Origin: Octopus vulgaris | Lineage: Eukaryota | DNA length: 64,000 bases | Assembly: GCA_951406725.2 (NCBI GenBank) | Contig: OX597829.1 | Location: forward strand, 46,996,001-47,060,000 | Direction: 5' to 3' | Shown: positions 4,630 to 14,190 of the stretch, one piece after another | Layout: each line of letters begins with the position of its first letter | How positions within the stretch are numbered: position 1 is the first letter of the stretch | Notes under the pieces: model-generated | Told to the model about the DNA's origin: nothing | The model's database searches: none | Seen by the model: only the letters and a program-made list of their open reading frames with translations | Position numbers and translations under genes: made by a program

Positions 4630-5420
4630 GGCGACGAGCTGGCTGAATCGTTAGCACGCCGGACGAAATGCTTAGCGGTATTTCGTCTGCCGTTACGTTC
4701 TGAGTTCAAATTCCGCCGAGGTAGACTTTGCCTTTCATCCTTTCGGGGTCGATAAATTAAGTACCAGTTACGCACTGGAGTCGATGTAATCGACTCAATC
4801 CGTTTGTCTTTCCTTGTTTGTCCCCTCTGTGTTTAGCCCCTTGTGGGTAGTAAAGTCTGCCGCTACGTTCTGAGTTCAAATTCCGCCGAGGTCGACTTTA
4901 CCTTTCATCCTTTCGCGGTCAATTAAATAAGTACAAGTTACGCACTGGAGTCGATATAATCGACTTAATCCGCTAGTCTGTCCTTGTTTGTCGCCTCTAT
5001 GTTTAGCCCCTTGTGGGCAATAAAGAAATAGGTATTTCGTCTGCCGCTACGTTCTGAGTTCAAATTCCGCCGAGGTCGACTTTGCCTTTCATCCTTTTGG
5101 GGCCGATCAAATAAGTACCAGTTACGCACTGGGGTCGATATAATCGACTTAATCCGTTTGTCTGTCCTTGTTTGTCCCTTCTGTGTGTAGCCCCTTGTGG
5201 GCAGTAAAGAAATAAGAATGTTTAGCTCGCCAGATAAGATACTTAGCGGCATTTCGACTGTCGCTATGCTCTGAGCTCAAATTCCGTTGAGATCGACTTT
5301 GTCTTTCATCCTTTCGGGGACGATTAAATAAGTACCAGTTGAGTACTGGGGTCGATGTAATTGACTTAATCCCCACCCCCCGCTAATTTCAGGCTTTGTG
5401 CCTGTAATAGAAAGGATTAT
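4630..5420 (+). mobile_element. SINE group C, head-to-tail array of 4 units
   Basis: Head GGCG(A/G)CGAGCTGGC..; B box GAGTTCAAATTCC recurs every ~175-200 bp. Confidence 0.88.
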
Positions 5421-5683: not shown

Positions 5684-5971
5684 ATATGTTTGATTTGATT
5701 TTGATTTTGATTTTTCCAGTTTCAGCTAATGAGCTGTGGCCATGCTGGGGCACCGCCATTTTATTCATTTATTCTTTTATTCTTTTACTACTTTCAGTCA
5801 TTTGACTGTGGCCATGCTGGAGCATCGCCTTCAAGGGATTTTTTTAAAATTCGCTCTCTTTTGTTGAAGCACTAAGTTACGGGGATGTAAACACACCATC
5901 ACCGGTTGATGAATAAGCGTTGATGGAGGGAAAAGCAGACACAAACTCATACGCACACACATATATATATT

Positions 5972-7533: not shown

Positions 7534-7591
<58 letters not shown>

Positions 7592-7629
7592 CGAAGGGGA
7601 GACAAACACCCCCAACTGCCGGAACTGCA

Positions 7630-7675
7630 TCTAGGGACACCGTGTTTCAGGATCATTGTCCTTCATCGGCCTAGA
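7630..7675 (-). ncRNA. Type I hammerhead ribozyme motif, inverted arm
   Basis: Reverse complement TCTAGG CCGATGA AGGA caatga TCCT GAAAC ACGGT GTC CCTAGA; best-paired copy (stem III ACAC-G-GTGT). Confidence 0.75.
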
Positions 7676-7772
7676 GTAGCAGACACCGGTCAGCTGGCGA
7701 TGTCTGTCTCGACTTCGTATCTGTATATATCTATAGTCAGTGAAGTCTATTCACTGATTATCAAAATAAGAA

Positions 7773-7837
7773 ATTGATTGATTGATTGATTGATTCCAGT
7801 TTCAGCTTATGAGCTGTGGCCATGCTGGGGCACCGCC
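7773..7837 (-). mobile_element. 5'-truncated retroposon 3' tail with (ATCA)n inserted into the 363-bp unit
   Basis: Interrupts the unit sequence AAGAAATATTGAGTTTC. Reverse complement GGCGGTGCCCCAGCATGGCCACAGCTC..GAAACTGG(AATC)n resembles the SINE-B tail and 5690-5760. Confidence 0.7.
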
Positions 7838-8055
7838 ATTGAGTTTCTAAATCTCTCGTAGAGAGGTGTACGGTGGTGGAGCGATATAATGGTTGTATAC
7901 TGTCAATCTAACAAGAACGTGACAGTAGGGGGTACACCACCGTTATATAGCCCTAGGAGGCATCGAACGCCTCCTGACAGCTCGACACATTTTATCCTGT
8001 GTCCTTATATATACATACGAAGGGGAGACAAACACCCCCAACTGCCGGAACTGCA

Positions 8056-8101
8056 TCTAGGGACACCGTATTTCAGGATCATTGTCCTTCATCGGCCTAG
8101 A
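8056..8101 (-). ncRNA. Type I hammerhead ribozyme motif, inverted arm (GAAAT variant)
   Basis: Same motif on - strand with GAAAC changed to GAAAT. Confidence 0.65.
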
Positions 8102-8213
8102 GTAGCAGACACCGGTCAGCTGGCGATGTCTGTCTCGACTTCGTTTCACTGACTATAGATATATACAGATACGAAGTCGAGACAGACATCGCCAGCTGAC
8201 CGGTGTCTGCTAC

Positions 8214-8259
8214 TCTAGGCCGATGAAGGACAATGATCTTGAAACTCGGTGTCCCTAGA
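8214..8259 (+). ncRNA. Type I hammerhead ribozyme motif (U4C core variant)
   Basis: TCTAGG-CCGATGA-AGGA caatga TCTT-GAAAC tcggt GTC-CCTAGA: stem I, core, stem II, GAAA, short stem III, GUC site at 8251-8253. Confidence 0.75.
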
Positions 8260-8576
8260 TGCAGTTCCGGCAGTTGGGGGTGTTTGTCTCCTCTTCGTAT
8301 GTGTATATAAGGACACAGGATAAAATGTGTCGAGCTGTCAGGAGGCGTTCGATGCCTCCTAGGGCTATATAACGGTGGTGTACCCCCTACTGTCACGTTC
8401 TTGTTAGATTGACAGTATACAACCATTATATCGCTCCACCACCGTACACCTCTCTACGAGAGATTTAGAAACTCAATATTTCTTATTTTGATAATCAGTG
8501 AATAGACTTCACTGACTATAGATATATACAGATACGAAGTCGAGACAGACATCGCCAGCTGACCGGTGTCTGCTAC

Positions 8577-8622
8577 TCTAGGCCGATGAAGGACAATGAT
8601 CTTGAAACTCGGTGTCCCTAGA
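8577..8622 (+). ncRNA. Type I hammerhead ribozyme motif, second tandem copy
   Basis: Same motif as 8214-8259, 363 bp downstream. Confidence 0.75.
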
Positions 8623-8939
8623 TGCAGTTCCGGCAGTTGGGGGTGTTTGTCTCCTCTTCGTATGTGTATATAAGGACACAGGATAAAATGTGTCGAGCTG
8701 TCAGGAGGCGTTCGATGCCTCCTAGGGCTATATAACGGTGGTGTACCCCCTACTGTCACGTTCTTGTTAGATTGACAGTATACAACCATTATATCGCTCC
8801 ACCACCGTACACCTCTCTACGAGAGATTTAGAAACTCAATATTTCTTATTTTGATAATCAGTGAATAGACTTCACTGACTATAGATATATACAGATACGA
8901 AGTCGAGACAGACATCGCCAGCTGACCGGTGTCTGCTAC

Positions 8940-8985
8940 TCTAGGCCGATGAAGGACAATGATCCTGAAACACGATGTCCCTAGA
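8940..8985 (+). ncRNA. Type I hammerhead ribozyme motif, terminal copy
   Basis: TCTAGG CCGATGA AGGA caatga TCCT GAAAC acgat GTC CCTAGA; the array stops about 2 nt after it. Confidence 0.75.
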
Positions 8986-9010
8986 TGTGTATATATATAT
9001 ATATATATAT

Positions 9011-13649: not shown

Positions 13650-14190
13650 ACTTAGCAGCGTTTCGTCCGTCTTGATGTTCTGACTTCAAATTCCGCCGAG
13701 CTAGACTTAGCCATTCATCCTTCGGGGTCGATAAAATATGTACCAGTTGAGTACCGGCATCAATGTAATCGATTTAATCCTTCCCTTGGAATCACCGGCT
13801 TTGTACCAAAATTAGGAACCAATGTTAATAACGACTGCGGCGTATCGTCTGCCTTTACATTCTGAGTTCAAATTCCGCCGAGCTCGACTTAGCCATTCAT
13901 CCTTCGGGGTCGATAAAATATGTACCAGTTGAGTACCGGCATCAATGTAATCGATTTAATCCTTCCCTTGGAATCACCGGCTTTGTACCAAAATTAGGAA
14001 CCAATGTTAATAACGACTGCGGCATATCGTCTGCCTTTACATTCTGAGTTCAAATTCCGCCGAGGTCGAGTTTGTCTTCATTCTTTTAGGGTCGATAAAT
14101 TAAGTACCAGTTGCATATTGGGGTCGATCTAATCGACTGGCTTCCCCTTCCCCAAAAGATTTCGGGGTTCGTGCCTAGAGTAGAAAAGAA
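13650..14190 (+). repeat. Diverged SINE group C units with a recent ~183-bp tandem duplication
   Basis: ~13678-13860 nearly identical to ~13861-14043. Confidence 0.75.

Follow-up and report, generated by a model that had tools for sequence, protein, structure and literature searches.

The analysed stretch of Octopus vulgaris DNA (64,000 nt; hereafter the window) comes from a 2.8 Gb, microsatellite-rich animal genome and contains a 363-nt unit repeated 2.3 times in tandem at 8145-8987. The tandem repeat forms the right arm of a head-to-head insertion, and an inverted left arm meets it over a 3-nt overlap (Table 1). We number the unit u1-363, from one predicted cut site to the next (window 8254-8616, plus strand). 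The longest sense stop-to-stop frame in the right arm spans 50 aa, and an open reading frame for a reverse transcriptase (RT) with a GIY-YIG endonuclease is absent from the arms. The left arm is interrupted by a 56-nt insert that is probably the end of a SINE-like repeat, SINE being our own reading; it has a 97.5% match at 5718-5757 and more than 10 further matches within the window. Elsewhere in the window, a 170-184 nt repeat that looks SINE-like forms tandem arrays at 4685-5214 and 13678-14113.

Table 1. Features of the head-to-head insertion, in window coordinates; u numbers refer to the 363-nt unit.
Feature	Position	Strand	Remarks
Right arm of head-to-head insertion	8145..8987	+	u255-363, two full units, u1-8; ends in (TA)n
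Left inverted arm	7582..8147	-	u278-363, u1-224, insert, u220-363, u1-54; ends in (TA)n
Later insertion in left arm, 56 nt	7782..7837	-	probable 3' end of abundant SINE-like repeat, (AATC)n tail, 5-nt target duplication
Monomer u1-363	8254..8616	+	bounded by predicted cleavage sites
Rod, 5' strand	8160..8219	+	pairs with 8254-8309, 50 bp in total
Rod, 3' strand	8254..8309	+	begins with stem I CCTAGA
UAC bulge, 6 bp from core	8211..8213	+	opposite U8260; likely loop 1 of tertiary contact
Type I hammerhead	8214..8259	+	stem I 8214-8219/8254-8259; predicted cut after 8253
Hammerhead parts		+	core CCGAUGA 8220-8226 (U4C); stem II 8227-8240, loop CAAUGA; GAAA 8241-8244; stem III near-palindromic
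Further hammerheads	8577-8622, 8940-8985	+	plus two on the minus arm
Branched domain u57-233	8310..8486	+	likely recognition/priming region for Penelope-type RT/endonuclease
u178, fixed 3' end of family insertions (putative RT start 1)	8431	+	53 ends exactly at u178
u233, second fixed 3' end (putative RT start 2)	8486	+	56 ends exactly at u233
Likely TATA box (TATAGA 8154, TATATA 8160), likely transcription start ~8186 (u296)	8154..8188	+	putative promoter

The unit carries a type I hammerhead ribozyme that can be read directly, with stem I UCUAGG/CCUAGA, core CCGAUGA, stem II AGGA/UCUU, loop CAAUGA, GAAA, a short stem III and GUC. Direct reading and a pattern script together give five hammerhead motifs in the locus. 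Complete apart from U4C, the motif predicts an RNA that would cleave itself at GUC. Rfam returned no hammerhead match here, at neither gathering score nor E<=10, and its microRNA matches were rejected, their source being the perfect hairpin at the inversion junction. Among 102 distinct family segments (those passing our pattern and flank filters), the core has U4C in 83, is the canonical CUGAUGA in 17 and has G5A in 2, one of which also has U4C; the U4C core is carried by subfamilies A-C, and the CUGAUGA core by family D. U4C is a natural variant that is considerably less active in vitro, yet viable in a viroid (PMC3088659). Stem III, which has four common spellings, is palindromic in 93 of the 102 segments, either exactly or around a single unpaired centre. 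Such a short palindromic stem III is the usual metazoan design, in which the dimer is active and the monomeric circle silent (PMC4209133).

Around this ribozyme the unit pairs extensively with itself. An earlier note on this DNA had named 13 helices and a long rod extending from stem I; all 13 helices are present at 8160-8514 with zero mismatches, and among them CCAGCTG/CAGTTGG has one G-U pair, GAGACAGACAT/GTGTTTGTCTC has two and the others none. Folded as a circle, 8254-8616 reaches -146.1 kcal/mol, with 66% of its bases paired; 150 dinucleotide shuffles average -92.4 +/- 5.8, the best of them -110.7 (z -9.2). The advantage that the note sought for the ribozyme strand is slight, the antisense strand being nearly equal (-133.8, z -8.7, also with 7 G-U pairs). 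The rod is there, with 50 pairs, but it takes up only about a third of the unit, and the remainder is multibranched. The catalytic core is missing from the predicted monomer fold, in which stem III has a probability of about 0 and CCGA pairs with UCGG instead.

The same architecture recurs in seven natural one-turn units from other subfamilies (eight were tried), at z -5.6 to -11.2, the last value belonging to a unit with an internal inverted duplication. The sense strand folds better in six of the seven; in one diverged unit the antisense is equal or better. Within one arm of the locus L030 lies a perfect inverted duplication, placed at the CAGTGAA/TTCACTG hairpin, which suggests fold-back copying there. 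Natural units in other subfamilies measure 351-365 nt, with one of 387. Since units of 351-365 nt occur, a 120-aa antisense frame in the window (8454-8816, minus), with one stop per 363-nt unit, is probably due to chance. The unit folded in the note is itself slightly decayed: changes at u349, u356 and u39, absent or almost absent in other copies, recur in adjacent turns of the right arm and are absent from the left arm, and two of them weaken stems II and III in the window's first two units. This distribution indicates that one unit was duplicated after insertion, or in the assembly.

Comparison across the family shows that the rod is kept by compensatory change. The family is represented by at least 421 exact matches to the core and by at least 2213 hits of a branch-domain motif. 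From the 102 segments we hand-picked 22 representatives, covering subfamilies from 98% to about 70% identity, and mapped the window fold onto their alignment by script, so that the structure comes from one member. Seventeen of the 50 rod pairs have changed on both sides (14 of 44 in the outer rod, 3 of 6 in stem I), and pairing in stem I stands at 97.7%. Covariation scores 0.276, shuffled controls 0.182 (0 of 500 reach 0.276) and slid controls about 0.10, and RNAalifold independently finds 13 of 30 pairs compensatory; the count of both-side-changed pairs taken alone is no better than in shuffles (89 of 500). Because these counts are of cells and columns rather than independent events and are inflated by relatedness, we added an internal control that sets shared against private variants. 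It covers 96 arms from 81 loci in three young subfamilies and 105 Watson-Crick reference pairs, a variant at four or more loci being called shared. Pairing is kept by 13 of 21 shared variants and by 27 of 107 private ones (Fisher p=0.0017).

These compensatory changes among diverged copies support the RNA-level selection on the rod that the earlier note had proposed. Its argument from G-U pairs is weak and only suggestive: G-U to A-C stands at 9:2 among shared variants (p=0.065), 24:23 among private variants and 17:7 on the 22-copy alignment (p=0.064). A bias of 15:2 (p=0.002) was dropped as inflated by the reference's own G-U pairs, the corrected value being 9:2. A-to-I editing is not supported as a source of G-U pairs; A>G against T>C is 11:5 in the rod (p=0.07) with no excess elsewhere, and A>G makes up only 1 of 13 template-level changes.

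Two parts of the unit vary less than the rod. The branched domain is far more conserved in sequence, with 100 invariant positions in 18 copies and compensatory change in 3 of 43 pairs, which would be expected where a protein binds; the domain is likely where the enzyme recognises the RNA. All 22 aligned copies have UAC or UAU in the bulge near the core and an A at the 3' end of loop II, 21 retain the opposite U, and these nucleotides stay constant while the flanking pairs vary. They match a known contact in Schistosoma, in which the internal loop (GUAC strand) takes part with its first U and last pyrimidine and a CAAAUA loop with its 3' A (PMC2632901). The docking of bulge and loop II suggested in the note is thus well founded, and the contact itself stays a prediction. 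At L314:1-290, a very diverged family member beside a Penelope-like element (PLE; profile E=0.00015) keeps the UAC bulge and a u233-type end, and its stem I is changed.

Insertions of this family end at two fixed sites. We fetched 120 loci, of which 98 are distinct. Half were the 60 best matches in two BLAST searches, a choice that favours long copies, and the other 60 were drawn from the first 100 core matches listed. Sixty-two of the 98 are head-to-head, and in 49 of these an outer end at 172-183 is paired with one at 227-242; another end occurs in 13, and the same end class never occurs twice in one locus (0/62). The 35 single-orientation loci end 17 and 16 times at the two sites. (TA)n adjoins 71 of the 98 loci, and clear target duplications of 10-13 nt are present at five. 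The window copy is atypical, with arm ends at u54 and u8, neither u178 nor u233.

The arms also record how they were copied. Seventy-five of 174 exceed one unit (longest 1223 nt), and such arms are found from the youngest to the most diverged subfamilies. Their 5' ends spread round the unit and are slightly over-represented at the cleavage site (9 of 174, with 4.3 expected; p=0.03), a hint that some templates were linear, and inversion junctions are mostly microhomologies of 2-5 nt. Between loci, 42% and 37% of polymorphic sites mismatch; between the two arms of one locus the counts are 0 of 26 and 13 of 353, and between successive turns 1 of 26 and 16 of 308. That both arms share one haplotype is consistent with one template. 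Paired ends, shared haplotype, long arms, spread 5' ends and microhomology junctions would all be explained by one circular template read from both strands. By analogy, the paired 178/233 ends are the two-start footprint of Penelope elements. Purified PLE protein cleaves AT-rich DNA on both strands, and its reverse transcription begins at two internal sites, leaving a tail at one end (PMC11167929), and inverted 5' copies and TA targets are typical of PLEs (PMC8557442).

PLEs of the same genome show a comparable anatomy. Among 30 GIY-YIG loci, two 3' ends about 35 nt apart lie before (TA)n, the short end in 14 and the long end in 5. No autonomous PLE sharing the branched domain was found in 50 GIY-YIG loci, a small part of 6136 and 20479 first-look candidates, and a profile of the domain matched only neighbouring retrozyme copies. 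In one young PLE family (L302, L307 and many others) open frames of 781 aa are numerous, the 3' ends are of two kinds, spaced by about 35 nt within (TA)n, and the 3' region carries repeated GATTGG...GATGACGTC motifs. A second (L202:2960-3045, L214), with open frames of up to about 930 aa, has its own type I hammerhead, in which, as read by eye, stem II is very long and stem III palindromic.

A cassette of about 1.74 kb, whose frame encodes 474 aa, sits in some retrozyme copies, and its position points to a likely promoter within the rod. In Pfam the cassette protein has only a sub-threshold zinc knuckle; its look-alikes are CCHC and ZCCHC3-type RNA-binding proteins, and no homologue was found at E<=0.001 in the protein collection searched. 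The retrozyme adjoins 17 of the 19 closest cassette loci, mostly at u296-311; the exact 3' junction has 15 occurrences, and sister cassettes sit in unrelated target sites. As a raw count, a TATA-like word stands 26-32 nt before the cassette target in 14 of 17 loci and in four target sequences including the retrozyme; at the other three loci the script left the target unplaced. The TATATAC strand (8160) occupies this TATA position, and transcription would likely start near 8186. The likely promoter and two whole hammerheads coincide in only 11 of 174 arms, the window arm included.

Several further arrangements of the cassettes were seen. ORF1-only cassettes that end in AATAAA lie at u296-311, sometimes in tandem, at L152:2100-3830 (minus), L171-L189, L227 and L236, and many cassette copies have intact frames of 450-490 aa. 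A reading of L152 as a "coding retrozyme" or a pLTR-ORF-pLTR was dropped: successive units hold different cassette subfamilies, cassette-free units adjoin, and sister cassettes lie in unrelated sites. At L221-L231, diverged ORF1-like cassettes (29-90% identity to P0001) are stacked head to tail at a spacing of about 1.8 kb without a retrozyme, the first of them about 30 nt after a TATA word. At L233:376-3773 (plus), LINE endonuclease-like and RT-like frames are followed by an ORF1 paralog. This LINE, which we take to be Tx1-like, is a candidate helper for the cassettes.

By its short tandem units, type I hammerhead, self-pairing and dispersal, the 363-nt unit is a member of a metazoan non-LTR retrozyme family. 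It lacks coding or LTR architecture, its arms are head-to-head with internal ends, and its target duplications exceed 4 nt. Metazoan non-LTR retrozymes likewise have tandem units of 150-450 nt with a type I hammerhead, GC below 50%, a self-paired predicted circle with the ribozyme free at the stem end and target duplications above 4 nt (PMC7229834); known examples come from coral, mussel (350-390 nt) and axolotl (330/350 nt) (PMC7229834). Circles and cleavage are demonstrated in those retrozymes (PMC7229834) and are predictions for the octopus family, whose young subfamilies, unlike them, carry U4C. The octopus copies are dispersed and two-armed with two fixed starts, a footprint that the available part of PMC7229834 does not describe; mobilisation of retrozymes by PLEs is put forward there as a hypothesis. 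We found no report of a cephalopod retrozyme in the literature searched; the supplement of PMC7229834 or bioRxiv supplements may name the family. The available part of an octopus repeat annotation (PMC13282606) gives 0 matches for ribozyme, retrozyme or hammerhead.

The unit also resembles elements outside this class. Poseidon of Anolis (PMC11167929) and Neptune/Naiad (PMC8557442) have two internal RT starts, a one-ended tail and an inverted 5'-truncated copy, and share with the octopus family the cutting of both strands of AT-rich DNA, (TA)n targets and a hammerhead in the repeat (PMC11167929, PMC8557442). Unlike these PLEs as described, the octopus unit has no RT-endonuclease ORF, its tail is 55 nt rather than 30-40, and its hammerhead is canonical rather than minimal; nor does it match in sequence the PLE ends sampled in the same genome. 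Vertebrate retrozymes read as pLTR derivatives are also non-autonomous, with a PLE-dependent interpretation and similar unit lengths (10.64898/2026.07.22.740005). The evidence there is co-occurrence and phylogeny, with tandems attributed to unequal crossing-over (10.64898/2026.07.22.740005), whereas ours is insertion anatomy, with no parent pLTR found in the 50 GIY-YIG loci. The Schistosoma-type hammerhead shares the 6-bp stem I, 4-bp stem II, UAC-type internal loop (first U, last pyrimidine), C....A hexaloop II and short palindromic stem III suited to dimers (PMC2632901, PMC4209133). The octopus ribozyme differs from that described type in the U4C of subfamilies A-C and in an internal loop that is 1x3 (as folded) rather than 4x4. 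Self-paired circles are already known in the class (PMC7229834), and phylogeny has been used to argue for the PLE link (10.64898/2026.07.22.740005).

Combining these observations, we consider it probable that the unit is a non-coding animal retrozyme whose rod is kept by compensation and which is likely cut, circularised and copied into (TA)n by a Penelope-type enzyme at two fixed sites. A TATA-type promoter within the unit upstream would start transcription near u296. Two hammerheads would then cut at GUC, probably as a double hammerhead, given that stem III is a palindrome and is not predicted within the monomer. The rod may hold the two ends of the monomer together for ligation, and the weak core (U4C, weak stem III) would spare the monomeric circle. 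A PLE RT-endonuclease, predicted to be a dimer, would bind the branched domain and cut both strands of an AT-rich target, priming at u178 on one strand and at u233 on the other. Both enzymes would traverse one and the same RNA, passing its ribozyme site, and their cDNAs would be joined at 2-5 nt microhomologies. Since then the window copy has decayed, with one unit duplicated locally. Counting against this course, only one of nine predicted Xenopus retrozymes was cleaved in vitro (10.64898/2026.07.22.740005).

A more specific proposal, which we hold tentatively and rate a little short of an even chance, is that each insertion records one RNA circle read twice at once, by a Penelope RT dimer at sites 55 nt apart that rolls through the ligated site. 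The RNA would be modular: the covarying rod would close the circle, the fixed branched domain would recruit the enzyme, and palindromic stem III with U4C would restrict cutting to multimers. The outer strand of the rod would double as the TATA box, used by the ORF1-only LINE as a landing site. The main competitor keeps the same element and a Penelope-type enzyme and makes the template a linear, largely uncleaved multimer, in which the rod props the hammerhead in cis and circles are a side product. Uncleaved RNA is the main substrate of a PLE in vitro (PMC11167929), so a linear multimer accounts for the same footprints; the core is weak (U4C; stem III probability about 0), a homogeneous tandem source would also yield identical arms and turns, and 5' ends are slightly in excess at the cut site. 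We nevertheless judge it unlikely. A likely promoter with two whole hammerheads is present in just 11 of 174 arms, and copying that truncates 5' ends should shorten arms in each round, whereas arms longer than one unit span the youngest to the most diverged subfamilies. None of 54 inversion junctions recurs at a second locus (by eye), where two-armed read-through might give recurrence, and the outer rod covaries too.

Two further readings of the rod fare far worse. One treats the self-complementarity as an inverted repeat at the DNA level, MITE-like or produced by fold-back correction during copying, with no RNA role; we regard it as very improbable. The antisense strand does fold almost equally well, the G-U bias is not significant, and promoter DNA may account for the TATATAC strand and the CAGTGAA/TTCACTG palindrome. 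However, the rod stops exactly at the hammerhead core, bulge and loop II nucleotides are kept while neighbouring pairs vary, bulges and G-U pairs persist uncorrected, and insertions end outside the rod rather than at its termini. The other reading, that the rod lets two cDNAs anneal and so finishes the head-to-head insertion, we reject as scarcely credible. Junctions of L003 and L013 do fall in register within the rod, and that of L108 in a branch hairpin, but a native helix is flagged at only 4 of 54 junctions, one of the four out of register, against a chance rate of 1.6% per single position that is higher for overlaps; most junctions are microhomologies of 2-5 nt elsewhere.

For the copying route of animal retrozymes and for the tandem and inverted structures of Penelope elements, the literature offers circles and PLE mobilisation as hypotheses. 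A rod is in itself expected of retrozyme RNAs; what this family adds is covariation, and a variable rod set against a fixed recognition domain. As a substrate it is small and protein-free, its fold is backed by covariation, its two putative priming sites are exact to the base, and its subfamilies span about 30% divergence. This would allow a PLE protein to be compared on circular and linear templates, where the expected product is clear.
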